Shown: positions 1 to 31,470 of the stretch, in pieces
Numbering within the stretch: the stretch's first letter is position 1
How the letters are laid out: every line of letters begins with the position of its first letter
From: a virus
Taxonomy: Duplodnaviria > Heunggongvirae > Uroviricota > Caudoviricetes
IMG/VR virus record: IMGVR_UViG_2541047775_000008
Direction: 5' to 3' (one strand)
Length of the DNA: 31,470 nt
The notes under the pieces: generated by a model
What the model was told of the DNA's origin: nothing
Databases searched by the model: none
The model's input: only the letters and a program-made list of their open reading frames with translations
Program-made: the position numbers and the translations under genes

Positions 1-981
1 TTATAACGTCACTCCGCCTTTTAGTGGATTCAGAGCGACGGCGTTCTGCAGGTAGTCAGGCGCAAGGTGCGCATAGGTCATTGTCTGCTGAATGCTCGCA
101 TGCCCCAGAATCTGTTGCAGTGCAATTATGTTGCCCCCATTCATCATGAAATGGCTTGCGAATGTATGCCGCAGAATGTGGGTTGCCTGATTGGGAGGTA
201 TATCAGGTTTCACTCTGCGTAAAATCCCGCAAAACTTCTCATAATCTACCTTGAACAATTTGGCGCTGGCCTCCTCTTTAACTTTTTTCTCCAGTTCCTC
301 AGAAATCGGCACTGTTCGCTTTTTACCGTTTTTGGTTTTCAGGAAGGTAACCCTGCAACTTGTAATCTGTGCTGGTTTTAGCGTGGCAACTTCCGTCCAT
401 CTTCCTCCAGTGCTCAGACATAAAAGCGCGACAAGTAAGTCATCACCAGTCAAAACATTTAGCAGTTTTTCGATTTCTGCTTTTTCCAGGAACGTCATTT
501 CAGGGTTAGCCTCCGTCAGTGGCGGCAGTCCGTGAATTGGGTGTTGCCCGGAAAATTCATCCAATTGAATTAATTTTGTGAACATGCCGGATAATCGGTA
601 CATGTCGCGGTTTATCGTTGCAGCACTGATGCCATCACGTAGTCGCATGGAGCGATAATCCATCAAAGCCCTTTTGTTCATCCGACTCACTGGTATATCA
701 CCTATGCCGCTGATGGTTTTGAGCAGATGATTAAACTCTTTTGTCCCATGCTCGTGGTTTTGCCCGTGGTATTTCCACCAGATGTCGAGCAATTCTGTCA
801 AAGTTCGGCGGTCTGCTCGCTGGCCTCCCCATTCTTTCTGACTGGCATTGACGATTGTGTATCGCTCAAATGCTACCGCTTCAGCTTTTCTTTCAAATTT
901 CCTGCGGATGCGTTTTCCATCGCGACCGCGAGGCCTGATATCCACTTCATAACGTCCATCATCGAGCTTTCTGATACTCAT
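1..981 (-). CDS. int: Tyrosine integrase (P2 Int-like), 326 aa
   Basis: N-terminus MSIRKLDDGRYEVDIRP resembles P2 Int. C-terminal catalytic region HILRHTFASHF...ILGH...MTYAHL carries the R-H-R-Y type motifs. ATG at 981 is preceded by a G-rich RBS; the longer ORF-track start at 1191 would overlap gene C. Confidence 0.9.
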   Translation of the reverse strand: MSIRKLDDGRYEVDIRPRGRDGKRIRRKFERKAEAVAFERYTIVNASQKEWGGQRADRRTLTELLDIWWKYHGQNHEHGTKEFNHLLKTISGIGDIPVSRMNKRALMDYRSMRLRDGISAATINRDMYRLSGMFTKLIQLDEFSGQHPIHGLPPLTEANPEMTFLEKAEIEKLLNVLTGDDLLVALLCLSTGGRWTEVATLKPAQITSCRVTFLKTKNGKKRTVPISEELEKKVKEEASAKLFKVDYEKFCGILRRVKPDIPPNQATHILRHTFASHFMMNGGNIIALQQILGHASIQQTMTYAHLAPDYLQNAVALNPLKGGVTL

Positions 982-1093
982 AAAGCCCCCCGATGAACAC
1001 GAGTTTTCTTGTTGTTTAGCCCTTTGTGGTTGTGTGATGAATATTTTTTTACCAGTAACATGCATTTTATGTGCATGTAATGTCGGTAAATAG

Positions 1094-1387
1094 TTAGCCA
1101 GTTTTGCGGCCTGAGTGTGACGATGTTGTTTCTTCTGGCCCAGAGTGTGCGACGACCGGGGAAATCTGCCCGGATTCTGGCGCAATCTCATCTGTCATAA
1201 TCCATAATGTATATTTTTTAAACAGCGGTGTGTTGACTACTTGCTTTACGATTTGTAGTCCTGGCTCTTTATGTCCACCTTCATAATTTTTCAACGAACT
1301 AAGTGCTAATCCACTAAGCTCGCAAAATTTTTTTTGTGTTAATCCCTCGGCCTTGCGAATAGCGCGAAGTTTCTCCGATATTTTCAT
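1094..1387 (-). CDS. C: Immunity repressor C (HTH), 97 aa
   Basis: HTH segment LTQKKFCELSGLALSSLKNYE; size and position (upstream of int, divergent from cox) as in P2 C (99 aa). Confidence 0.85.
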   Translation of the reverse strand: MKISEKLRAIRKAEGLTQKKFCELSGLALSSLKNYEGGHKEPGLQIVKQVVNTPLFKKYTLWIMTDEIAPESGQISPVVAHSGPEETTSSHSGRKTG

Positions 1388-4100: not shown

Positions 4101-6375
4101 AGCCTCCGGGCGTTTTGTCCCTCCTTCAGCATTTGCTGCAGGCACCGGTAAGGCGTTTACCGGTGCTTATGCATGGAACGCGCCACGCGAGGCCGTCGGG
4201 CGCGAAAGACCCCTTACACGTGACGAGATGCGTCAGGTGCAAGGTGTTTTATCCACGATTAACCGCCTGCCTTACTTTTTGCGTTCGCTGTTTACTTCAC
4301 GCTATGACTACATCCGGCGCAATAAAAGCCCGGTGCACGGGTTTTATTTCCTCACATCCACTTTTCAGCGTCGTTTATGGCCGCGCATTGAGCGCGTGAA
4401 TCAGCGCCATGAAATGAACACCGACGCGTCGTTGCTGTTTCTGGCAGAGCGTGACCATTATGCGCGTCTGCCGGGGATGAATGATAAGGAGCTGAAAAAG
4501 TTTGCCGCCCGTATTTCATCGCAGCTTTTCATGATGTATGAGGAACTCTGCGATGCCTGGGTGGATGCGCATGGCGAAAAAGAATCGCTGTTTACGGATG
4601 AGGCGCAGGCTCACCTCTATGGTCATGTTGCTGGCGCTGCACGTGCTTTCAATATTTCCCCTCTCTACTGGAAAAAATACCGTAAAGGACAGATGACCAC
4701 GAGGCAGGCATATTCTGCCATTGCCCGTCTGTTTAACGATGAGTGGTGGATTAGTCAGCTTAAAGGCCAGCGTATGCGCTGGCATGAAGCGTTACTGATA
4801 GCTGTCGGGGAGGTCAATAAAGACCGTTCTCCTTATGCCAGTAAACACGCCATTCGTGATGTGCGTGCGCGCCGCCAGGCAAATCTGGAATTTCTTAAAT
4901 CGTGTGACCTTGAAAACAGGGAAACCGGCGAGCGCATCGACCTTATCAGTAAGGTGATGGGCAGTATTTCTAATCCTGAAATTCGCCGGATGGAGCTGAT
5001 GAACACCATTGCCGGTATTGAGCGTTACGCCGCCGCAGAGGGTGATGTGGGGATGTTTATCACGCTGACCGCGCCGTCAAAGTATCACCCGACACGTCAG
5101 GTCGGAAAAGGCGAAAGAAAAACCGTCCAGCTTAATCACGGCTGGAATGATGAGGCATTTAATCCAAAGGATGCGCAGCGTTATCTCTGCCGTATCTGGA
5201 GCCTGATGCGCACGGCATTCAAGGATAATGATTTACAGGTCTACGGTTTGCGTGTCGTCGAGCCACACCACGACGGAACGCCGCACTGGCATATGATGCT
5301 TTTTTGTAATCCACGCCAGCGTAACCAGATTATCGAAATCATGCGTCGCTATGCGCTCAAAGAGGATGGTGACGAAAGAGGAGCCGCGCGAAACCGTTTT
5401 CAGGCAAAACACCTTAACCGGGGCGGTGCTGCGGGATATATCGCGAAATACATCTCAAAAAACATCGATGGCTATGCACTGGATGGTCAGCTCGATAACG
5501 ATACCGGCAGGCCGCTGAAAGACACAGCGGCGGCTGTTACCGCATGGGCGTCAACGTGGCGCATACCACAATTTAAAACGGTTGGCCTGCCGACAATGGG
5601 GGCTTACCGTGAACTACGCAAATTGCCTCGCGGCGTCAGCATTGCTGATGAGTTTGACGAGCGCGTCGAGGCTGCACGCGCCGCCGCAGACAGTGGTGAT
5701 TTTGCGTTGTATATCCGCGCGCAGGGTGGGGCAAATGTCCCGCGCGATTGTCAGACTGTCAGGGTCGCCCGTAGCCCGTCGGATGACGTTAACGAGTACG
5801 AGGAAGAGGTCGAGAGAGTGGTCGGCATTTACGCACCGCATCTCGGCGCGCGTCATATTCATATCACCAGAACGACGGAGTGGCGCATTGTGCCGAAAGT
5901 TCCGGTCGTTGAGCCTTTGACTTTAAAAAGCGGCATCGCCGCGCCTCGGAGTCCTGTCAATAACTGTGGAAAGCTCACCGGTGGTGATACTTCGTTACCG
6001 GCTCCCACACCTTCTGAGCACGCCGCAGCAGTGCTAAATCTGGTTGATGACGGTGTTATCGAATGGAATGACCCGGAGGTCGTGAGGACGCTCAGGGGTG
6101 CATTAAAACACGGCCTGAAAACACCAAATCGTCAGCAAAGAAACGGAAGTCCGTTAAAACCACATGAAATAGCACCGTCGGCCAGACTGACCCGGTCGGA
6201 ACGATTGCAAATTACCCGTATCCGCGTTGACCTTGCTCAGAACGGTATCAGGCCGCAGCGATGGGAGCTTGAGGCGCTGGCGCGTGGCGCGACCGTAAAT
6301 TATGACGGGAAAAAATTCACGTATCCGGTCGCTGATGAGTGGCCGGGATTCTCAACAGTAATGGCGCGGACATAA
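4090..6375 (+). CDS. A: Replication initiation protein A (rolling-circle nickase), 761 aa
   Basis: Sequence from MAVKASGRFVPPSAFAAGTGK onward matches what I recall of P2 gpA; length 761 aa equals P2 A. ORF-track start at 4048 is an upstream in-frame extension. Confidence 0.92.
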   Translation: MAVKASGRFVPPSAFAAGTGKAFTGAYAWNAPREAVGRERPLTRDEMRQVQGVLSTINRLPYFLRSLFTSRYDYIRRNKSPVHGFYFLTSTFQRRLWPRIERVNQRHEMNTDASLLFLAERDHYARLPGMNDKELKKFAARISSQLFMMYEELCDAWVDAHGEKESLFTDEAQAHLYGHVAGAARAFNISPLYWKKYRKGQMTTRQAYSAIARLFNDEWWISQLKGQRMRWHEALLIAVGEVNKDRSPYASKHAIRDVRARRQANLEFLKSCDLENRETGERIDLISKVMGSISNPEIRRMELMNTIAGIERYAAAEGDVGMFITLTAPSKYHPTRQVGKGERKTVQLNHGWNDEAFNPKDAQRYLCRIWSLMRTAFKDNDLQVYGLRVVEPHHDGTPHWHMMLFCNPRQRNQIIEIMRRYALKEDGDERGAARNRFQAKHLNRGGAAGYIAKYISKNIDGYALDGQLDNDTGRPLKDTAAAVTAWASTWRIPQFKTVGLPTMGAYRELRKLPRGVSIADEFDERVEAARAAADSGDFALYIRAQGGANVPRDCQTVRVARSPSDDVNEYEEEVERVVGIYAPHLGARHIHITRTTEWRIVPKVPVVEPLTLKSGIAAPRSPVNNCGKLTGGDTSLPAPTPSEHAAAVLNLVDDGVIEWNDPEVVRTLRGALKHGLKTPNRQQRNGSPLKPHEIAPSARLTRSERLQITRIRVDLAQNGIRPQRWELEALARGATVNYDGKKFTYPVADEWPGFSTVMART

Positions 6376-6827
6376 TGACAAAGATTCACAAAGTAAAGCT
6401 GCACGCAAAATATTTCGACCTTGTGCTGGAAGGAAAGAAACGCGCAGAGTTTCGGAAAAATGACCGTAATTATGAGCGCGGAGACACGTTGATTTTGCAT
6501 GAATGGGGGCAGGGTGTGTATACGGGGCGAAAGGTTGAAGCCCGGATAACAGATGTTACTGACCTGTCAGACTGGCTGGAAGATTATGTCTTGCTAAGTA
6601 TTGAGCTGCTTAATACAGGCGCATATGAGATTGTGAACTGGAAAGAACTTAGTGAGCGTGGTCTGGTATTCAGAATTAATCATGAAATTATGCATCAGCT
6701 CGGCCTTGCTGTTATGTATGAACCAGAGACGGGGATGTCTGGCGGGGCAATGGTTGCCACGGATGGAGCATGGAACTATTCAGATGAACAGATTGAGCGT
6801 GCAAAGCAAAACGGGTGGCTTGGATAA
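6375..6827 (+). CDS. ASCH/DUF3850-like domain protein, 150 aa
   Basis: N-terminal region KIHKVKLHAKYFDLVLEGKKRAEFRKNDRNYERGDTLILHEW fits the ASCH-like DUF3850 pattern. ATG overlaps A stop (TAATG). C-terminal 70 aa unassigned. Confidence 0.6.
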   Translation: MTKIHKVKLHAKYFDLVLEGKKRAEFRKNDRNYERGDTLILHEWGQGVYTGRKVEARITDVTDLSDWLEDYVLLSIELLNTGAYEIVNWKELSERGLVFRINHEIMHQLGLAVMYEPETGMSGGAMVATDGAWNYSDEQIERAKQNGWLG

Positions 6828-7072: not shown

Positions 7073-7299
7073 GGAGGGAACAACGAACAGCGAGAGGTGG
7101 TAGTTGGCCATCATTTGAGTATCAGCATATGATTGGATTTATAACGGTTGGAAAGATTAATGTTGGTGAACTAATAAATTACAAATATTCACAAGAAGAT
7201 CTTATGTTACTAACATGAGTTTATGTGTAATATAGCTGTACATACCAATATCCGCTGTACCTTTGTTTTTATTTGGTTTGTCAGGTGTCACAGGTATGG

Positions 7300-7328
7300 T
7301 TGGCGTATGAGAATGGTTTATTTAAATT
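7300..7328 (+). promoter_or_regulatory. Candidate sigma70 promoter for the cargo gene
   Basis: TTGGCG (7300..7305), 17-bp spacer, TAAATT (7323..7328), about 30 nt upstream of ATG 7357. Hexamer choice is tentative in AT-rich DNA. Confidence 0.25.
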
Positions 7329-7356
7329 AAATATTGATTAAGGTTGAAAGAATGTC

Positions 7357-8253
7357 ATGAATAAAAGTAAAGCAATCTCAAGAATAGAGAGAGTGTTGAG
7401 AAGATTAAAGGATGGGAGTTTCACTGATAGTGATATTGATGTTCTTTTTGTTACGGCCCGTGAGTTGCCGAGTGCGCCCAAGTGTATTTTTGAAATTGGG
7501 AGTTTTGTTGCCCATAATCATCGGAGAGATCAAGGCGAGATAAAGGATATCATGCTGAGGAATCATTTGTTATTAAGTTTAAAATTTGGACGCGATAAGC
7601 ATGCTGTTAAACCAGAGTTAAATGAATACCCGAAATACTTACCTACATTAATCAGACTGCAATTAAGAATGTTCAGTGATGAGTTTTTAAAGGAGAAGTT
7701 AAACTTAAAGGGGGGGCAGGTAATTACAGCGAGGAAGAAGCTTAATAACAAGAAATCGTATATTGTTAATGATGGTGTTTGTAAGTTAACACCAGAAATT
7801 GGTTCCAATGAAGGGCGAATGATTAATGAAGCTTTGTCGTTACTCAATTGTTCTGACGCAATTAAGTTCGACTCTTTGTTTAATGAGCTGAAAATATTGC
7901 TTCGGAAGGAGATTCCAGGGGTGGACTTGATGCCGCTTGATAATAACAGGAGAGCAATAGCAGGCATCTTACTGTGTTTGTTGAATAATATTGATTTTTC
8001 TCTGATGCCTGAAGTCAAAGCAAAAACAGTCCTTAGTCTTAATGATGCAGATAAATCTGCAAATGTTTATGGTCAATATTATATAACACATGAAAAAGAG
8101 CCATTCACCGACGTGGCTATCATGAGCCCAGTGTTTCAGTCGGGGTATGATGTTAGTGACCTTTTTGATGAGCATGTGACAAATGAAAATATCGTAAATG
8201 GGGATGTCGAATTTAGTTTTGATTTGGGGAAAATAGTTGTGTCGAAATCATAG
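7357..8253 (+). CDS. Unassigned 298-aa protein on an AT-rich cargo island at the tin/old position; candidate anti-phage defence or other moron
   Basis: Long uninterrupted ORF in visibly AT-rich DNA (stop codons are frequent there, so a 298-codon ORF is unlikely by chance). Compositional break from flanking phage DNA. Location between A-proximal genes and cos. No motif I recognise. Confidence 0.75.
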   Translation: MNKSKAISRIERVLRRLKDGSFTDSDIDVLFVTARELPSAPKCIFEIGSFVAHNHRRDQGEIKDIMLRNHLLLSLKFGRDKHAVKPELNEYPKYLPTLIRLQLRMFSDEFLKEKLNLKGGQVITARKKLNNKKSYIVNDGVCKLTPEIGSNEGRMINEALSLLNCSDAIKFDSLFNELKILLRKEIPGVDLMPLDNNRRAIAGILLCLLNNIDFSLMPEVKAKTVLSLNDADKSANVYGQYYITHEKEPFTDVAIMSPVFQSGYDVSDLFDEHVTNENIVNGDVEFSFDLGKIVVSKS

Positions 8254-8293
8254 TTTAGACCCAAACGAGCACGTTCCTAATTTCCCTTCAATA

Positions 8294-8340
8294 CATGCAT
8301 TTAGTGCATGATTTTGCATGCGGCAGCGATCGTTTTTTAT
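8294..8340 (+). terminator. Possible terminator region downstream of the cargo gene
   Basis: Hairpin CATGCA (8294..8299) / TGCATG (8305..8310), then T-rich tract including TTTTTT at 8333..8338. Confidence 0.3.
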
Positions 8341-8416
8341 TGTTTATAATCGCCTGTATTGACGATGTTTTGATGTGTTATTGCAACTGCATTAAAAGCG
8401 CTCCATGAAGCGGGCG

Positions 8417-18829: not shown

Positions 18830-19738
18830 ATGCCGATTATCGACCTGAACCAGCTACCCGCACCGGATGTGGTCGAGGAGCTGGACTTTGAAACCATTCT
18901 CGCCGAACGCAAGGCGACACTGATTTCCCTTTACCCGGAAGACCAGCAGGAGGCGGTCGCCCGTACCCTGACGCTGGAATCCGAGCCTCTCGTCAAACTG
19001 CTGGAGGAAAATGCTTATCGTGAGCTTATCTGGCGTCAGCGTGTGAATGAGGCCGCACGGGCGGTGATGCTGGCCTGTGCCGCCGGTAATGACCTTGATG
19101 TGATTGGTGCCAATTACAACACCACGCGCCTGATTATCACCCCGGCAGATGATTCGACCCTCCCGCCGACACCGGCAGTGATGGAATCTGATACCGATTA
19201 TCGTCTGCGTATTCAGCAGGCGTTTGAAGGTTTAAGCGTCGCCGGGTCGGTGGGGGCCTATCAGTATCATGGTCGCAGTGCTGACGGGCGTGTCGCGGAT
19301 ATCTCTGTCACCAGTCCGTCTCCGGCCTGCGTCACCATCTCCGTGCTGTCACGTGAAAATAACGGCGTCGCATCCGAAGACCTGCTGGCCGTGGTGCGTA
19401 ACGCCCTTAATGGCGAGGACGTCAGGCCGGTGGCCGACCGCGTGACCGTGCAGTCTGCCGCCATCGTTGAATACCAGATAAACGCCACGCTGTATCTTTA
19501 CCCTGGTCCCGAAAGCGAACCCATTCGCGCTGCCGCCGTGAAAAAACTGGAAGCGTATATCACGGCACAGCACCGGCTGGGGCGCGACATCCGTCTGTCT
19601 GCCATTTATGCCGCTTTGCATGTGGAAGGCGTGCAGCGTGTCGAACTGGCTGCACCGCTGGCCGACATCGTGCTTAACAGCACGCAGGCGTCTTTCTGTA
19701 CCGAATACCGCGTCGTGACCGGAGGCTCGGATGAGTGA
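18830..19738 (+). CDS. J: Baseplate protein J, 302 aa
   Basis: Length and synteny as P2 J. Confidence 0.85.
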   Translation: MPIIDLNQLPAPDVVEELDFETILAERKATLISLYPEDQQEAVARTLTLESEPLVKLLEENAYRELIWRQRVNEAARAVMLACAAGNDLDVIGANYNTTRLIITPADDSTLPPTPAVMESDTDYRLRIQQAFEGLSVAGSVGAYQYHGRSADGRVADISVTSPSPACVTISVLSRENNGVASEDLLAVVRNALNGEDVRPVADRVTVQSAAIVEYQINATLYLYPGPESEPIRAAAVKKLEAYITAQHRLGRDIRLSAIYAALHVEGVQRVELAAPLADIVLNSTQASFCTEYRVVTGGSDE

Positions 19739-20342
19739 TTCGCGCCTGCTGCCGACCGGCTCATCACCACTTGAAGTCGCCGCCGCAAAAGCCTGTGCGG
19801 AAATTGAAAAAACGCCGGTCAGTATTCGTGAGCTGTGGAACCCGGATACCTGTCCGGCAAATCTGCTGCCGTGGCTGGCGTGGTCATTTTCGGTTGACCG
19901 CTGGGATGATAAGTGGCCGGAAGCGACAAAACGCGCTGTTATCCGCGATGCGTATTTCATTCACTGCCATAAGGGCACTATTGGTGCGATTCGCCGTGTG
20001 GTGGAGCCGCTCGGATATCTGATTGAGGTGAGGGAGTGGTGGCAGCTCAACGAGGAGCCGGGGACGTTCCGCATCGTTGTTGGCGTGCTTGAGCAGGGTA
20101 TTACCGAAGAAATGTATCAGGAGCTGGAGCGCCTCGTTGCTGATGCAAAACCGGCGAGCCGCCATCTGACGGGACTGGCTATCAGTTTAAGTACAACCGG
20201 CAACATTTTTGCCGGTGCGGGATGCTATCACGGTGACGCCCTGACGGTTTATCCCTACACCCCGGAGGCCATTATTGTCGGAGGGGATTATTTCCCGGCC
20301 TCGGCCATTCATTTAATTGATAACCTGAGAGTAAACGCATGA
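19731..20342 (+). CDS. I: Baseplate protein I, 203 aa
   Basis: N-terminus MSDSRLLPTGSSPLEVAAAKACAEIEK resembles P2 gpI; synteny. Confidence 0.85.
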   Translation: MSDSRLLPTGSSPLEVAAAKACAEIEKTPVSIRELWNPDTCPANLLPWLAWSFSVDRWDDKWPEATKRAVIRDAYFIHCHKGTIGAIRRVVEPLGYLIEVREWWQLNEEPGTFRIVVGVLEQGITEEMYQELERLVADAKPASRHLTGLAISLSTTGNIFAGAGCYHGDALTVYPYTPEAIIVGGDYFPASAIHLIDNLRVNA

Positions 20343-21535
20343 CAGTGAAATACTACGCCATTCTGACTAATCAGGGCGCAGCACGGCTGGCTAACGCGAC
20401 GATGCTCGGCAGTAAGCTGAATCTGACGCAAATGGCCGTTGGTGATGCGAATGGTGTCTTGCCGACACCAGACCCGGCACAGACAAAACTGATTAATCAG
20501 AAACGCATTGCACCGCTGAATCTTCTGAGTGTTGACCCGAACAACCAGAGCCAGATTATTGCGGAGCAAATCATCCCTGAGAACGAGGGCGGATTCTGGA
20601 TCCGTGAGATTGGGCTTTATGATGATGAAGGCGTACTCATTGCGGTGGCGAACTGCCCGGAAACGTACAAACCGCAGTTGCAGGAAGGCAGTGGTCGTAC
20701 CCAGACTATCCGCATGATTCTGGTTGTCACGAATACCGAAGCTATTACGCTGAAAATCGACCCGTCGGTGGTACTGGCGACCCGTAAATACGTGGATGAT
20801 GAAGTCCTGGAATTAAGGCTGTATGTGGATGACCAGATGAGAAAACACATTGCCGCACAGGACCCTCATACCCAGTATGCACAGAAACATAATCCGACAT
20901 TTACCGGAGAACCAAAAGCGCCGACGCCTGCCGCAGGAAATAACACCACGCGGATTGCGACCACTGAGTTTGTTCAGGCTGCTATTACCGCTCTGATTAA
21001 CGGCGCGCCTGCCACGCTGGATACACTGAAAGAAATTGCCGCAGCCATTAACAATGACCCGAAATTCAGCACCACCATTAACAATGCGCTGGCAGGTAAA
21101 CAACCGCTGGACAATACGCTGACTCATTTGAGTGGAAAGGATGTTGCCGGTCTTCTCGCATACCTTGGTTTGGGAGAGGCGGCAAAACGGGATGTGGGCA
21201 CAGGGGGGAATCAGATCCCGGATATGGGTAGTTTTGAATTCAGGAATGAACTGAATGAAGGATATGTACGGTTTCCTCAGAAATGGATGCTGCAATGGAA
21301 GAAAGTCTCTATTCCTGCAGCATCTGGTACTAAAGGGGCTACAGTATCAGCAAACTATTTAATCCCGTTCACATTAACGGTTATTGGGTCATGGGCCAAC
21401 GTTGAAAGCCGCACCATTAACGTGGCGGCGAGTCCGTTTGTCAGTGCATCTAATAACAATCTTTCTTCATTTCTTGCAACCAGTACATATACATCCAGCC
21501 AACTGGAAGTAATGGTGTATTCAATAGGGCGTTAA
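20339..21535 (+). CDS. H: Tail fibre protein H, 398 aa; constant N-terminal part joined to the currently expressed variable C-terminal cassette
   Basis: N-terminus resembles P2 gpH / Mu S (AVGDANGVLPTP...GGFWIREIGLYDDEGVLIAVAN). An inversion crossover site lies inside the gene at 21153..21178. Confidence 0.85.
   Translation: MTVKYYAILTNQGAARLANATMLGSKLNLTQMAVGDANGVLPTPDPAQTKLINQKRIAPLNLLSVDPNNQSQIIAEQIIPENEGGFWIREIGLYDDEGVLIAVANCPETYKPQLQEGSGRTQTIRMILVVTNTEAITLKIDPSVVLATRKYVDDEVLELRLYVDDQMRKHIAAQDPHTQYAQKHNPTFTGEPKAPTPAAGNNTTRIATTEFVQAAITALINGAPATLDTLKEIAAAINNDPKFSTTINNALAGKQPLDNTLTHLSGKDVAGLLAYLGLGEAAKRDVGTGGNQIPDMGSFEFRNELNEGYVRFPQKWMLQWKKVSIPAASGTKGATVSANYLIPFTLTVIGSWANVESRTINVAASPFVSASNNNLSSFLATSTYTSSQLEVMVYSIGR
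21153..21178. repeat. Left crossover site of the tail-fibre inversion (cix/gix-like, 26 bp)
   Basis: TTCTCGCATACCTTGGTTTGGGAGAG; its right half TTGGTTTGGGAGA is identical to the reverse complement of the site at 22996..23021. Confidence 0.6.
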
Positions 21536-21537
21536 TT

Positions 21538-21975
21538 ATGGAATTTTTATGGTCTCCCGCAAACCTGTCATTTTTTCCCGAGTCCCTAATACAGGAATAT
21601 ATCGATGCTGGCTGGGATTTATCAGATGCCGTTGCAATCAGCGATACCGTAAGAGCGGAATACGGTGGTGTATGGCCGCAGGGGAAAATTCTCTCCAGCG
21701 TGAATGGAATGCCAGCCTGGGCTGATATTCCACCGCCAACTCATGAGGAACAAATTGCCGCAGCCGAACTGGAAAAGCAGCAATTGATTGATCGGGTCAA
21801 CGAATACATAAACAGTAAGCAATGGCCTGGTAAAGCGGCGATTGGTCGTCTGAAAGGTGAGGAACTGGCACAATATAATTTGTGGCTGGATTATCTGGAT
21901 GCACTGGAAATGGTCGATATTTCCAGTGCTCCAGATATTGAATGGCCTACGCCTCCGGTAGTTCAGGCCAGATGA
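21538..21975 (+). CDS. G: Tail fibre assembly chaperone G, 145 aa (expressed orientation)
   Basis: Directly downstream of H; C-terminal motif DYLDALEMVDISSAPDIEWP is shared with the inverted paralog. Confidence 0.8.
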   Translation: MEFLWSPANLSFFPESLIQEYIDAGWDLSDAVAISDTVRAEYGGVWPQGKILSSVNGMPAWADIPPPTHEEQIAAAELEKQQLIDRVNEYINSKQWPGKAAIGRLKGEELAQYNLWLDYLDALEMVDISSAPDIEWPTPPVVQAR

Positions 21976-22549
21976 CATCCGGCGCGGTGCTGGTATCTGT
22001 TGCCACCACCGCGTCAATGTAATCCAGCACGGCGTTAAGTCGGGTTGTTTCTGCCAGCGTCAACTTCCGTCCGGCCTGTAATTTCAGCTGAATCAGACTA
22101 ATGGAAGCCATTGCTGCATCAATCAGTGACTGGCGCTGTGCTTCTGCCGCGTCTACTGCGGCACTATGCTGTGCCTCAGTATCCGTCACCCATTTCTCAC
22201 CATCCCATTTATCATATGGCGTTAACGGGGCGATAGTGGTTGTATTTTCAGGGTAATCACCCGGAGCTGTGATTTCTTTCGATTCTCCTGTTTCGGTGCT
22301 ATAGATGATTTCACCGCGATGGTCTGGCACATATTCCCATGAGTTAAAATCTGCAGAACGGCAGATTGCATAACCAGCTTTATGTGTAACTGGTGCATCT
22401 AAACAAGAACATGCCGGGATACCGACGCCAACCGCAAGATATTCAGTTGATGTGGAAATATATTCCCGCGTTTCACCATCATAATTATAAACGGTTATGT
22501 CTCCCGCTTTTATGGCAATGAGTTCGTTATTTAATACGGCTTTATTCAT
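21947..22549 (-). CDS. Alternative tail fibre assembly chaperone G', 200 aa (silent orientation)
   Basis: Convergent with G; C-terminus LDYIDAVVATDTSTAPDVIWP is homologous to the G C-terminus; 3' ends overlap by 29 bp. Confidence 0.75.
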   Translation of the reverse strand: MNKAVLNNELIAIKAGDITVYNYDGETREYISTSTEYLAVGVGIPACSCLDAPVTHKAGYAICRSADFNSWEYVPDHRGEIIYSTETGESKEITAPGDYPENTTTIAPLTPYDKWDGEKWVTDTEAQHSAAVDAAEAQRQSLIDAAMASISLIQLKLQAGRKLTLAETTRLNAVLDYIDAVVATDTSTAPDVIWPELPEA

Positions 22550-23021
22550 CAGGCAGCCCTCACGATATAATTAAAGGCAATGTTACGAGGTCGGTTTTCG
22601 TTTGCAGTTGGAACAACTCTGGAAGCATCGAATGTTACTCGCTTTGCATAACCACCGTTAATTGAATCAGATGAAGCAGCTCCGATGACGCTGGTTGTAA
22701 AAGCGCCAGAATCAGAAGGATAGGTATTAAACCTGACATCCACTAATGCACCAATTATATTTCGAATGGCATCGCCCTGTGATGAAAGCAAGCTACGGCT
22801 AGTATCTATTCCTCTTCCGTCATCCCAGCCACGAATAAACTCACCGCGTAAATCAGGCAATTTATTTGTCGGGTAAACTTTTGCCAGTTCCGGATACTCT
22901 TCGGCAGAAAAAGGCGCACCGTTGCATTTCAGCCAGCCTGTTGGCGGAGTGGCTGAAGGCCACGGAACAGGCACCCCAACAGGTAATGCAGAACCTTCTC
23001 CCAAACCAACGTTTATGAAAA
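22549..23021 (-). CDS. Alternative tail-fibre variable C-terminal cassette H' (promoterless, silent until inversion)
   Basis: Minus-strand ORF whose 5' end coincides with the right crossover site; would read ...LGLGEGSALPVG... after fusion to the H constant part. Typical tail-fibre C-terminal character. Confidence 0.7.
22996..23021. repeat. Right crossover site of the tail-fibre inversion (cix/gix-like, 26 bp)
   Basis: TTCTCCCAAACCAACGTTTATGAAAA; inverted relative to the site at 21153..21178. Confidence 0.6.
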
Positions 23022-23076
23022 TGCAGAGATAACGGGCAAGTGGCATCATCTCCGGTTTTTATTCAGGGGGATGCTC

Positions 23077-23670
23077 ATGCTTATTGGCTATGTACGCGTG
23101 TCAACAAATGACCAGAACACGGAATTGCAGCGTAACGCGCTGGAGTGCGCAGGATGTGAGCTGATTTTTGAGGATAAAATCAGCGGCACGAAGTCCGACA
23201 GGCCGGGGCTGAAAAAACTGCTCAGGACATTATCGGAGGGGGATACACTGGTAGTCTGGAAGCTGGACCGGCTGGGGCGTAGTATGCGGCATCTGGTCAT
23301 TCTGGTTGAGGAGCTGCGCGAACGCGGCATTAATTTTCGCAGCCTGACGGATGCCATTGATACCAGCACGCCGATGGGGCGTTTTTTCTTTCATGTGATG
23401 GGTGCCCTGGCTGAAATGGAGCGAGAACTCATTGTCGAGCGGACACGCGCCGGACTGGAAGCGGCCAGAGCTAAAGGTCGTATTGGTGGCAGGCGTCCGA
23501 AACTCACCGCGAGTGAGTGGGAGCAGGCCGGGCGGTTGCTGGCTGCAGGGGAATCACGTCAACGCGTGGCACTGATTTTTGATATTGGCCTGTCCACGCT
23601 CTATAAAAAATTCCCCGCCTCAGTGACAAAAAATAAATTGTGTCATCCCTTAGCCAACCGGGACAAATAG
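23077..23670 (+). CDS. Serine DNA invertase (Gin/Cin/Pin/Hin family), 197 aa
   Basis: N-terminus MLIGYVRVSTNDQNTELQRNAL with the catalytic serine motif; resolvase-like core; C-terminal HTH; RBS GGGGG upstream. Confidence 0.9.
   Translation: MLIGYVRVSTNDQNTELQRNALECAGCELIFEDKISGTKSDRPGLKKLLRTLSEGDTLVVWKLDRLGRSMRHLVILVEELRERGINFRSLTDAIDTSTPMGRFFFHVMGALAEMERELIVERTRAGLEAARAKGRIGGRRPKLTASEWEQAGRLLAAGESRQRVALIFDIGLSTLYKKFPASVTKNKLCHPLANRDK
23638..23656 (+). promoter_or_regulatory. Candidate late-promoter upstream element for the FI operon, located inside the 3' end of the invertase gene
   Basis: TTGTGTCA-N7-GCCA, the same motif as at 11480..11498, about 75-90 bp upstream of the FI ATG. Confidence 0.3.
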
Positions 23671-23729: not shown

Positions 23730-24920
23730 ATGAGTGACTATCATCACGGCGTGCAGGTGCTGGAGATTAACGACGGCACCCGCGTCATTTCCACCGTATC
23801 CACTGCCATTGTCGGCATGGTCTGCACGGCCAGCGATGCGGATGCGGAAACCTTCCCCCTCAATAAACCGGTGCTGATTACCAATGTGCAGAGCGCAATT
23901 GCAAAGGCCGGTAAAAAAGGCACGCTGGCGGCGTCGTTGCAGGCCATCGCCGACCAGTCAAAACCGGTCACCGTTGTCGTGCGTGTGGAAGACGGCACCG
24001 GCGACGACGAGGAAACGAAACTCGCGCAGACCGTTTCCAATATCATCGGCACCACCGACGAAAACGGTCAGTACACCGGACTGAAAGCCCTGCTGGCGGC
24101 GGAGTCGGTAACCGGTGTTAAACCGCGTATTCTCGGCGTGCCGGGACTGGACACCAAAGAGGTGGCTGTTGCACTGGCATCAGTCTGTCAGAAGCTGCGC
24201 GCTTTCGGGTATATCAGTGCATGGGGCTGTAAAACCATTTCCGAGGTGAAAGCCTACCGTCAGAATTTCAGCCAGCGTGAGCTGATGGTCATCTGGCCGG
24301 ATTTCCTCGCATGGGATACGGTTGCCAGTACCACCGCCACCGCGTATGCCACCGCCCGTGCGCTGGGTCTGCGTGCCAGAATCGACCAGGAGCAGGGCTG
24401 GCATAAAACGCTGTCCAACGTCGGGGTGAACGGTGTTACCGGCATCAGCGCATCTGTATTCTGGGATTTGCAGGAGTCCGGCACCGATGCTGACCTGCTG
24501 AATGAGTCAGGCGTCACAACGCTGATTCGCCGTGACGGTTTCCGCTTCTGGGGTAACCGTACCTGCTCTGATGACCCGCTGTTCCTCTTTGAAAACTACA
24601 CCCGCACCGCGCAGGTGCTGGCCGATACGATGGCTGAGGCGCACATGTGGGCGGTGGACAAGCCCATCACCGCAACGCTGATTCGCGACATCGTTGACGG
24701 CATCAATGCCAAATTCCGTGAGCTGAAAACAAACGGCTATATCGTGGATGCGACCTGCTGGTTCAGCGAAGAATCCAACGATGCGGAAACCCTCAAGGCC
24801 GGAAAACTGTATATCGACTACGACTATACCCCGGTGCCTCCTCTCGAAAACCTGACCCTGCGCCAGCGTATTACCGATAAATACCTGGCAAATCTGGTCA
24901 CCTCGGTTAACAGCAATTAA
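23730..24920 (+). CDS. FI: Tail sheath protein FI, 396 aa
   Basis: Length identical to P2 FI; RBS GGAG; synteny. Confidence 0.9.
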   Translation: MSDYHHGVQVLEINDGTRVISTVSTAIVGMVCTASDADAETFPLNKPVLITNVQSAIAKAGKKGTLAASLQAIADQSKPVTVVVRVEDGTGDDEETKLAQTVSNIIGTTDENGQYTGLKALLAAESVTGVKPRILGVPGLDTKEVAVALASVCQKLRAFGYISAWGCKTISEVKAYRQNFSQRELMVIWPDFLAWDTVASTTATAYATARALGLRARIDQEQGWHKTLSNVGVNGVTGISASVFWDLQESGTDADLLNESGVTTLIRRDGFRFWGNRTCSDDPLFLFENYTRTAQVLADTMAEAHMWAVDKPITATLIRDIVDGINAKFRELKTNGYIVDATCWFSEESNDAETLKAGKLYIDYDYTPVPPLENLTLRQRITDKYLANLVTSVNSN

Positions 24921-30487: not shown

Positions 30488-30567
30488 TCCTCAATTTGCC
30501 TGCTGCTTAATGCATTGCAGATGATTTGCTTCCGTTATACTAGCGTCAGTTGATAGCGGGAGTATTT

Positions 30568-31470
30568 ATGAATCAATCTTATGGACGGCTGGTCAGTCGG
30601 GCGGCGATTGCTGCAACGGCGATGGCTTCACTGCTATTGCTGATTAAAATTTTTGCATGGTGGTATACCGGGTCGGTGAGTATTCTCGCCGCGCTGGTGG
30701 ATTCGCTGGTGGATATCGGCGCGTCGTTGACGAATTTACTGGTGGTGCGATATTCCCTGCAACCTGCCGACGATAATCACTCGTTTGGTCACGGTAAAGC
30801 TGAGTCCCTCGCGGCGCTGGCGCAAAGTATGTTTATCTCCGGTTCGGCACTATTCCTCTTTTTGACGGGTATTCAACATCTGATATCTCCAACACCGATG
30901 ACAGATCCAGGCGTCGGGGTTATCGTGACAATTGTGGCGCTAATTTGTACGATTATCCTTGTCTCGTTTCAGCGGTGGGTGGTGCGCCGGACGCAAAGCC
31001 AGGCGGTGCGGGCTGATATGCTACATTACCAGTCTGATGTTATGATGAACGGCGCAATTCTGCTGGCGCTGGGGTTGTCCTGGTACGGCTGGCATCGCGC
31101 CGATGCTCTGTTTGCATTGGGAATCGGCATCTATATTTTATATAGCGCGTTACGCATGGGATATGAGGCGGTACAGTCATTACTGGATCGCGCATTACCT
31201 GATGAGGAACGGCAAGAAATTATTGATATCGTGACTTCCTGGCCGGGTGTTAGCGGCGCTCACGATCTTCGCACGCGGCAGTCAGGGCCGACCCGCTTTA
31301 TTCAGATTCATTTGGAAATGGAAGACTCTCTGCCTTTGGTTCAGGCACATATGGTGGCGGATCAGGTAGAGCAGGCTATTTTACGGCGTTTTCCGGGATC
31401 GGATGTGATTATCCATCAGGACCCCTGTTCCGTCGTACCCAGGGAGGGTAAACGGTCTATGCTTTCATAA
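30568..31470 (+). CDS. fieF: Host cation diffusion facilitator family Fe/Zn efflux transporter FieF (YiiP), 300 aa
   Basis: Protein [49 protein letters not shown]... matches what I recall of E. coli FieF; six TM helices followed by a cytoplasmic domain. Confidence 0.92.

Follow-up and report, generated by a model that had tools for sequence, protein, structure and literature searches.

Between genes G and FI of the P2-like prophage contained in the window analysed here (the whole stretch of 31,470 nt), a recombinase gene follows two oppositely directed sets of tail-fibre genes. This arrangement raises the question whether the locus acts as a switch that exchanges the tip of the tail fibre, or whether it merely resembles one. 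From our analysis, it is very probably a functional invertible tail-fibre switch of the Pin/Gin/Cin type, carried by a P2-like (Peduovirus) prophage. Both the mechanism and the family are already established, as is the presence of such modules in the P2 Z/fun hotspot.

With coverage of 75-79%, the window shares 96-97% identity with P2, Wphi and pro483, and it keeps the late gene order of P2 (V W J I H G, hotspot, FI FII E T U D). The initial annotation had assigned the module to the Z/fun slot, and this placement holds: the module sits between G and FI, homology to P2 is back at 23650, and the counterpart of this place in P2 is fun(Z), located between the V-operon terminator and FI. Gene H is part of an otherwise complete P2-like late operon. 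In the old/tin hotspot, a 298-aa ORF had no match in PADLOC or Pfam.

Table 1 Features of the invertible module and its surroundings, with positions in the window.
Feature	Position	Strand	Basis and details
Gene I	19731-20342		Pfam/ORF
Tail-fibre gene H	20339-21535	+	ORF; LGLGE at aa 276-280; 398 aa in captured orientation
H constant part	20339-21164	+	N-terminal about 275 aa, common to both switch states; Pfam Phage_tail_fib PF12571 aa 1-150, E = 1.2e-62
Left crossover site	21153-21178	+	26 bp, TTCTCGCATACC-TT-GGTTTGGGAGAG; core dinucleotide TT = 21165-21166
Invertible segment	21165-23009	.	Crossover to crossover, 1845 bp; homologous segment of relatives exactly reverse-complemented
Tip cassette A	21165-21535	+	Variable C-terminus of H in captured orientation; ORF and in-silico flip
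Assembly chaperone A	21538-21975	+	145 aa, cognate of cassette A; Pfam Caudo_TAP PF02413, E = 3e-31
Assembly chaperone B	21947-22549	-	200 aa, cognate of cassette B; Pfam Caudo_TAP, E = 2.1e-31
Tip cassette B	22549-~23009	-	Alternative C-terminus without own N-terminal fibre domain; Pfam Collar PF07484, E = 5.9e-15
Right crossover site	22996-23021	-	26 bp; + strand = TTCTCCCAAACC-AA-CGTTTATGAAAA
Serine DNA invertase	23077-23670	+	Pin/Gin/Cin/Hin family, 197 aa, intact; Pfam Resolvase E = 3.1e-52 and HTH_7 E = 5.2e-13
Putative Fis-dependent recombinational enhancer	23095-23166	+	5' end of invertase gene; inferred by homology to cin nt 19-90
Right edge of insertion vs P2	23650-23729	+	97.5% identity to P2 17572-17651, upstream of FI (pF promoter region)
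FI, tail sheath	23730-24920		ORF and Pfam

A repeat search of the window yielded an inverted repeat pair with arms of 25 nt (21153-21177 and 22997-23021) that are 80% complementary and spaced by 1819 nt. The left and right sites are imperfect 26-bp dyads in inverted orientation, each with 12-bp half-sites around a 2-bp core. Reverse-complemented, the right site reads TTTTCATAAACG-TT-GGTTTGGGAGAA; it has the exact 13-mer TTGGTTTGGGAGA in common with the left site, and the central TT is identical in both. The 13-mer alone is statistically weak, with 16 of 100 shuffles giving at least two matches when 2 mismatches were allowed. We also scanned the 31.5-kb window with a degenerate 22-nt consensus that is satisfied by Mu gix, P1 cix and e14 pix (TCNNAWACSTYGGTTTNNNNGA). 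Even with 2 mismatches allowed, it matched at the left and right sites only (0.04 matches expected by chance), both of which fit with zero mismatches; a third crossover site, as in one four-variant EPEC P2-like prophage, was not found in the window at this setting. The two inverted 26-bp sites with a 13-bp core that had been proposed are thus recovered by both approaches, the inverted repeat stands upon alignment to the known gix, cix and pix sites, and the outer-to-outer span of 1869 bp agrees with the "about 1.87 kb" given initially. The left site encodes ..LAYLGLGE.. of H and differs at 1 or 2 positions, including position 26 (G, not A), from the left sites of relatives shown to flip. The right site has exactly the sequence of its counterpart in the e14 P segment of E. 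coli K-12.

Between the sites lie two convergent cassettes, each composed of a fibre tip and a Caudo_TAP chaperone, with the 3' end of chaperone B overlapping chaperone A by 29 nt. ORFs and Pfam domains agree with the earlier reading of an H 3' end plus assembly gene on the plus strand facing an alternative cassette plus assembly gene on the minus strand, and both ORFs of the silent cassette are intact. RefSeq labels this silent cassette as a stand-alone 'phage tail protein'. Up to the left site, H shares 95-98% identity with its counterparts in pro483, CUVM3 and phage 'P2' from strain T22; tip cassette A diverges from its relatives past about 21227. Chaperone A shares 68% identity with e14 TfaP over 78 aa, chaperone B is 92.5% identical to e14 TfaE, and tip B is 58% identical to e14 StfE overall, with conserved N- and C-terminal stretches. 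When the segment was flipped in silico at the core, H stayed open and changed from 398 aa to 428 aa (H'), with LAYLGLGE fused to GSALPVG..., so that the C-terminus of H can be swapped in frame at the LGLGE junction as had been suggested. The flipped H' ends in the Collar-domain tip, directly followed by the 200-aa Caudo_TAP gene.

Just downstream of the right site follows the serine invertase gene, located where it had been annotated and intact, with Resolvase and HTH_7 domains. The protein shows 87.8% identity to PinE (Cin, 81.3%; Gin, 80.7%) and aligns without gaps over residues 1-182 to the Gin structures 3UJ3 and 4M6F. It possesses the features of a small serine recombinase, namely a catalytic domain at the N-terminus that includes the nucleophilic serine (Ser9 in Gin; Ser9 present here, motif GYVRVSTNDQ) and a C-terminal helix-turn-helix. 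Searching the invertase and the fibre parts against NCBIfam gave no specific equivalog, only sub-threshold matches to other serine recombinases. The Gin, Cin, Pin and Hin systems possess a cis-acting, Fis-dependent recombinational enhancer near the start of the invertase gene. Its putative equivalent here, in the 5' end of the gene, aligns with cin nt 19-90, which the P1 record labels 'enhancer of Cin-mediated C-segment inversion', and agrees with it at 58 of 72 nt; coding constraint could account for this conservation. Two 15-mers of the form G-N13-C are located in the invertase gene at nt 22-36 and nt 71-85. The second 15-mer is kept by pin, gin and cin alike, the first by pin and gin, with its final C lost in cin. 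Inversion at this locus may be Fis-dependent. A simple scan detected no sigma-70-like promoter between the right site and the invertase start.

Natural inversions were found in very close relatives. The assembly of strain MS 198-1, whose invertase is identical to that of the window at 190 of 197 positions, represents this locus twice, in the chromosome and in an alternative contig. Over 20,853 bp the two versions differ only by a segment of 1867 bp between the sites, which is perfectly reverse-complemented. We rejected the possibility that this 'plasmid' is a real plasmid-borne copy: yegQ and yegP, two chromosomal genes, are present on the contig, which does not otherwise differ from the chromosome. 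Such switches create spurious extra contigs, which is relevant to the interpretation of assemblies. CUVM3 and CPww7 (invertase 194/197 identical to the window's) differ by the same inversion, with 1 mismatch in the flanks and 2 in the inverted segment of 1857 bp. The inversion breakpoints of these relatives map exactly into repeats homologous to the two sites. Across 5426 E. coli genomes, the two states of the left junction occur in 244 and 363 genomes, the latter having the H constant part fused to tip B. The window itself holds a single state and both states exist among relatives, in line with the initial view that it captures one of two orientations. For e14, sequencing and PCR have demonstrated inversion, and the same study reported phase variation within P2-like prophages of EPEC (PMC4272514).

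This very copy might still be a fossil switch, with the right anatomy but frozen in the captured orientation, for instance if the invertase were unexpressed or if the G at position 26 of the left site impaired binding. Full-length copies of this cassette pair were found in only 2 of the 5426 complete E. coli genomes, LR-25 and H9Ecoli. Both share the orientation of the window, and a full-length flipped copy was not found in this set (best flipped match 81% coverage, 92.7% identity); two genomes are, however, a small sample that carries little information on orientation. The lack of a promoter-like site upstream of the invertase in the simple scan would fit a frozen locus, and locked relatives exist, as in phage 'P2' of strain T22 (KC618326) the invertase is frameshifted after about residue 128. 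In contrast, the invertase ORF in the window is intact with its catalytic serine and HTH domain, the silent-cassette ORFs are both undamaged, and the sites share their core dinucleotide and show no mismatch to the family consensus. Moreover, relatives with 96-98% identical invertases and the same right site have flipped. We consider a fossil unlikely and expect that this copy can invert as well.

The fibre tip currently expressed, tip A, is a rare allele. Among 50,697 phage records it had no close match, all being below 60% identity and at most 75% coverage. Because of this result and the occurrence of the full module in only 2 of 5426 complete E. coli genomes, one might propose that tip A (21228-21535) and the N-terminal half of its chaperone constitute an undescribed receptor-binding allele, which could recognise a receptor new for P2-like phages. 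A second proposal is that the flipped H-StfE-like fusion is a StfE2-type adsorption blocker in the lysogen. We regard these two proposals, taken jointly, as quite improbable.

It is very unlikely that the switch mainly serves the lysogen, whether by an H-StfE-type chimera that blocks the adsorption of other phages or by the invertase acting in trans on host segments. Cassette B and chaperone B are homologous to e14 StfE and TfaE, Pin-family sites elsewhere in E. coli are near-identical, and PinQ-driven inversion of the e14 P segment leads to StfE2, which blocks T2 adsorption (PMC12529663). However, the late operon that contains H here is P2-like and otherwise complete, the overall identity of cassette B to StfE is just 58%, and no feature in the sequence points to expression in the lysogen. 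P2 late operons are silent in lysogens, which also counts against this role.

Least credible of all is that the repeat is a mere conserved coding motif (..GLGE..) of tail-fibre genes next to a recombinase that is unrelated Z/fun hotspot cargo: the 13-bp core is unremarkable by itself and lies within coding sequence on both strands, but the match extends to a 26-bp dyad that satisfies the gix/cix/pix consensus at both places and nowhere else in the window, the right site matches the e14 site exactly in its outer half, which falls beyond the part that encodes the fibre tip, and the breakpoints in the relatives fall exactly into these repeats.

For the functional switch that we favour, the following course of events can be proposed. 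Dimers of the invertase would bind the two 26-bp sites and, together with the presumably Fis-bound enhancer in the 5' end of their own gene, form an invertasome. Both sites would be cut at the central TT/AA, and the half-sites rotated by 180 degrees and religated, yielding the inverted segment. In the captured orientation, the late operon is predicted to express H with tip A and chaperone A. Once the segment is inverted, tip B, which resembles StfE, would be joined to this constant N-terminus (H of 428 aa) and expressed from the unchanged promoter along with the TfaE-like chaperone B. Because inversion swaps tip and chaperone, a lysogenic population would release two virion types differing in receptor specificity, and the host range would likely change. 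The prophage is thus probably able to make virions with two receptor specificities, which is useful for host-range prediction; beyond annotation, the importance of this finding is small.

Among known systems, the P segment of e14 with PinE (stfP-tfaP / tfaE-stfE / pinE in E. coli K-12) shows the same gene order and orientations. Besides the identical right site, its left site matches that of the window at 22 of 26 positions, the gap between site and invertase is about the same (54-55 nt), and the segment is of similar size (1797 bp reported, PMC12529663, compared with 1845 bp here). The initial annotation had described a 'Gin/Cin-type', Mu/P1-like module. The class of invertible switch was correctly recognised, but the nearest relative is Pin of e14, judging from the invertase (87.8% identity to PinE vs ~81% to Cin and Gin), the right site and the 92.5% identity to TfaE. 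On invertase identity and site sequence, we therefore dropped Gin/Cin as the closest label and assign the module to the Pin/e14 type. There are differences as well. The e14 element is a defective lambdoid remnant, whereas the window holds an apparently complete P2-like myovirus prophage with a P2-type H constant part; with 26% identity, tip A is unrelated to e14 StfP, and tip B reaches just 58% identity to StfE. The C-terminus of the invertase is 13 aa longer than that of PinE and ends in P2-derived sequence.

The G segment of Mu with Gin and the C segment of P1 with Cin belong to the same mechanism class, with a serine invertase 81% identical to the one here. Like the window, both have 26-bp sites with a 2-bp core and two cassettes of tip plus chaperone (S/U and S'/U'); the enhancer that they carry near the start of the invertase gene has a putative counterpart here. 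At about 3 kb (Mu) and 4.2 kb (P1), their segments exceed the one in the window in size. The central dinucleotide in gix is TC instead of TT, and apart from a short stretch within the constant part, the fibre sequences are mostly unrelated to those of the window. The cixL site of P1 overlaps cin at its 3' end, hence the enhancer is far from the site. The layout found here, a site followed by a gap of ~55 nt and the invertase gene, is that of Mu and e14, unlike P1.

Within P2-like phages the invertase-bearing arrangement is not unusual, as it is annotated in pro483 and others, common in E. coli genomes and published. Invertases in the Z/fun slot occur in Escherichia phage pro483, phage S164, Salmonella phage MET_P1_103_31, Fels-2 (fin) and the P2-like prophages of EPEC E2348/69. 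DNA invertases were found to be frequent in this hotspot, with inverted neighbouring genes (bioRxiv 10.1101/2024.10.15.618418), and Fels-2 shows a tail-fibre inversion beside fin (PMC7953296). In pro483, the annotated genes (tail fiber, two assembly proteins, tail fiber, DNA invertase) are arranged as in the window, with 94% identity over 77% of the module. Both orientations are represented among the P2-like relatives carrying the module. Some of these have three sites and four variants (PMC4272514), whereas the window has two sites, and it differs from its P2-like relatives by the alleles in tip A, in the N-terminal half of chaperone A and in the middle of tip B.

The top inverted-repeat pair returned by a repeat search of the window (21153-21177/22997-23021) falls within two 26-mers, TTCTCGCATACC-TT-GGTTTGGGAGAG on the left and, reverse-complemented, TTTTCATAAACG-TT-GGTTTGGGAGAA on the right. 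The central TT and 13 exact bases are common to both, which confirms the pair of inverted crossover sites with a 13-bp common core proposed in the initial annotation. The 13-mer by itself is weak evidence, with at least two matches in 16 of 100 shuffles when two mismatches were allowed. From the crossover sites of the Mu, P1 and e14 sequences (e14 is a cryptic prophage of E. coli K-12) we drew a 22-nt degenerate consensus, TCNNAWACSTYGGTTTNNNNGA; the window's own sites needed no widening at any position. Across the 31.5 kb this consensus matches both sites with zero mismatches and nothing else even at two mismatches (0.04 expected); the window thus has no crossover site beyond these two, and both align with the known gix/cix/pix family.

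The genes in and around the module are listed in the table. In the captured orientation, the variable tip of H (tip A) and chaperone A are expressed from the plus strand, with tip B and chaperone B as the alternative cassette on the minus strand. The 3′ ends of the two chaperone genes overlap by 29 nt (21947-21975), the same as in e14 and pro483. A second inverted repeat (21885-21907/22006-22028; 23 nt, 74% complementary) is explained by the homology between the C-termini of these convergent chaperones (..LDYLDAL../..LDYIDAV..).

Genes of the tail fibre module and further features of the window.
Feature	Position	Strand	Domains
Tyrosine integrase	1-1191	-	
162-aa ORF	6339-6827	+	ASCH/DUF3850, DUF7415
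298-aa ORF	7357-8253	+	
P2 gene I homologue	19731-20342	+	Tail_P2_I
Tail fibre gene H, 398 aa	20339-21535	+	Phage_tail_fib at N-terminus
145-aa ORF (chaperone A)	21538-21975	+	Caudo_TAP (tail fibre assembly)
200-aa ORF (chaperone B), convergent	21947-22549	-	Caudo_TAP (tail fibre assembly)
166-aa ORF (tip B)	22549-23049	-	Collar
Invertase ORF, 197/199 aa	23077/23071-23670	+	Resolvase, HTH_7
Tail sheath gene FI	23730-24920	+	Sheath domains
FieF-like cation-efflux gene (host)	30550-31470	+	Cation_efflux, ZT_dimer
Domains of the module genes (gene I homologue to FI) are from Pfam.

When the segment 21165..23009 was reverse-complemented in silico, core to core, H stayed open. The flipped H comprises 428 aa, with the constant 275 residues, the junction ...LAYLGLGE/GSALPVG... 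and then the Collar-domain tip, and the 200-aa chaperone gene comes directly after it. The proposed swap of the fibre C-terminus at LGLGE with a concomitant chaperone switch is thus borne out in silico. The 166-aa minus-strand ORF, which the flip fuses to H, is thus a cassette that lacks an N-terminal fibre domain. The ATG at which it would seem to start, 23049, is not part of the invertible segment and falls in the region upstream of the invertase; likewise, the ATG of e14 stfE, which RefSeq labels a pseudogene, falls outside its segment. Equivalents of the silent tip carry the stand-alone RefSeq labels 'phage tail protein' or 'gp53-like domain-containing protein', and such labels hide the switch.

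Only one sequence represents the window's copy, and natural flipping was instead examined in relatives. In the assembly of E. coli MS 198-1 the locus is present twice, on the chromosome (NZ_CP146687.1) and on a 66.8-kb contig (NZ_CP146689.1), identical over 20,853 bp (NZ_CP146689.1 22956-43808) except for 1867 bp between the sites, which are a perfect reverse complement. The invertase of this strain is identical to that of the window at 190 of 197 residues. Most simply read, the two copies mean that the sequenced culture contained both orientations. The smaller contig, labelled 'plasmid unnamed2', bears a P2-like prophage and the chromosomal neighbours yegQ and yegP and equals the chromosome save for the flipped segment, which speaks against a real plasmid; it resembles an alternative path through the assembly, created by the switch. 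Similar matches occur on the 210-216-kb plasmids CP018956 and CP104682. The pig isolates CUVM3 and CPww7 also differ by inversion of the segment, with breakpoints inside the shared repeat, one mismatch in the flanks and two in the inverted 1857 bp.

Of 5426 complete E. coli genomes, 244 have the left junction as it stands in the window and 363 have the predicted flipped junction, the latter at identities reaching 98.6%. The full module with this exact cassette pair is present in only two of them, LR-25 (98.8%) and H9Ecoli (95.7%), both in the window's orientation. In LR-25 (NZ_AP027500.1, 640-1543), the closest genome match, H is annotated as two pseudogene fragments, either through decay or through assembly error. 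Region 21228-21703, covering tip A and the N-terminal half of chaperone A, diverges from all close relatives, and no phage record matches tip A at more than 60% identity; the best phage matches, below this value, are short tail fibre genes of the Shigella phages SfIV, SfV and SfII. The currently expressed tip A is a rare allele.

The invertase, with the N-terminus MLIGYVRVSTNDQ, is 87.8% identical to PinE of e14, 81.3% to Cin and 80.7% to Gin; it aligns gap-free with two solved Gin structures over residues 1-182, and Ser9 is present. It exceeds PinE by 13 aa, and this C-terminal extension ends in P2-derived sequence. The initial annotation suggested looking for a Fis-dependent enhancer in the 5′ region of the gene. 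Nucleotides 19-90 of cin are annotated as the inversion enhancer in the P1 record, and the homologous stretch of the window, 23095-23166, is identical at 58 of 72 positions. Two G-N13-C 15-mers lie within it. The one at gene nt 22-36 is shared with pin and gin, whereas cin lacks its final C; the one at nt 71-85 is conserved in pin, gin and cin. The stretch is compatible with a Fis-dependent enhancer; coding conservation would look alike and is inseparable from it.

The window is a P2-like prophage; over 75-79% of its length it shares 96-97% identity with P2, Wphi, pro483 and others. The left end carries an integrase and the right end a host cation-efflux gene, so that the window comprises an integrated prophage flanked by chromosome on one side. 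The module was correctly placed in the Z/fun slot. In P2 this slot, bounded by FI and by the V-operon terminator that follows G, is occupied by fun(Z) on the minus strand, and homology to P2 restarts at 23650, within the final 20 nt of the invertase ORF and upstream of the FI promoter region. This places the right-hand recombination joint of the insertion at 23650-23670. Within the P2 old/tin hotspot, which gene A and the portal gene delimit, lies a low-GC stretch (7200-8400; 35-38% vs ~55% elsewhere); its 298-aa ORF, matching neither Pfam nor PADLOC, is unannotated hotspot cargo. The 162-aa ORF lies directly 3′ of replication gene A.

The initial assignment as a Gin/Cin-type switch is confirmed as an observation and supported in its interpretation, with a refinement towards e14. 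The layout of e14 is the same (ymfQ, stfP, tfaP, then minus-strand tfaE and stfE, followed by pinE); e14 and the window have an identical right site, and their left sites agree at 22 of 26 positions. Protein identity is 92.5% between chaperone B and TfaE, 58% between tip B and StfE and 26% between tip A and StfP. The right site precedes the invertase start by 55 nt in the window and 54 nt in both e14 and Mu, whereas the P1 site cixL overlaps cin at its 3′ end. On these grounds the module is best called Pin-type within the Gin/Cin/Pin/Hin family.

PinQ inverts the P segment of e14, and the resulting chimeric StfE2 blocks adsorption of T2 (PMC12529663), which suggests a possible role at the lysogen level; the late-operon context of the window's H makes this unlikely here. 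The evidence supports a classical serine-invertase tail-fibre switch, from which we infer flipping of the window's own copy. Phage pro483 is annotated with the same architecture, 'DNA invertase' included. 'Escherichia phage P2' of O157:H43 strain T22 (KC618326.1) carries a related segment in the opposite orientation, between sites at about 2537 and 4398 with the same 26-mer, including the outer half. Its invertase (4495-4989) is frameshifted after about residue 128 and has lost the HTH domain, and this switch is probably locked. The kind of system is already known: coexisting orientations were demonstrated in e14, and phase variation was reported in EPEC P2-like prophages, one with three repeats and four variants (Goldberg et al., PMC4272514). 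The Z/fun hotspot often encodes a DNA invertase with adjacent genes inverted (Egorov and Atkinson, bioRxiv 10.1101/2024.10.15.618418), and Fels-2 with its fin invertase is a further example (PMC7953296). Against this background, the sole particulars of the module are its Pin/e14 type, the rare tip A allele and the P2-derived end of the invertase extension.
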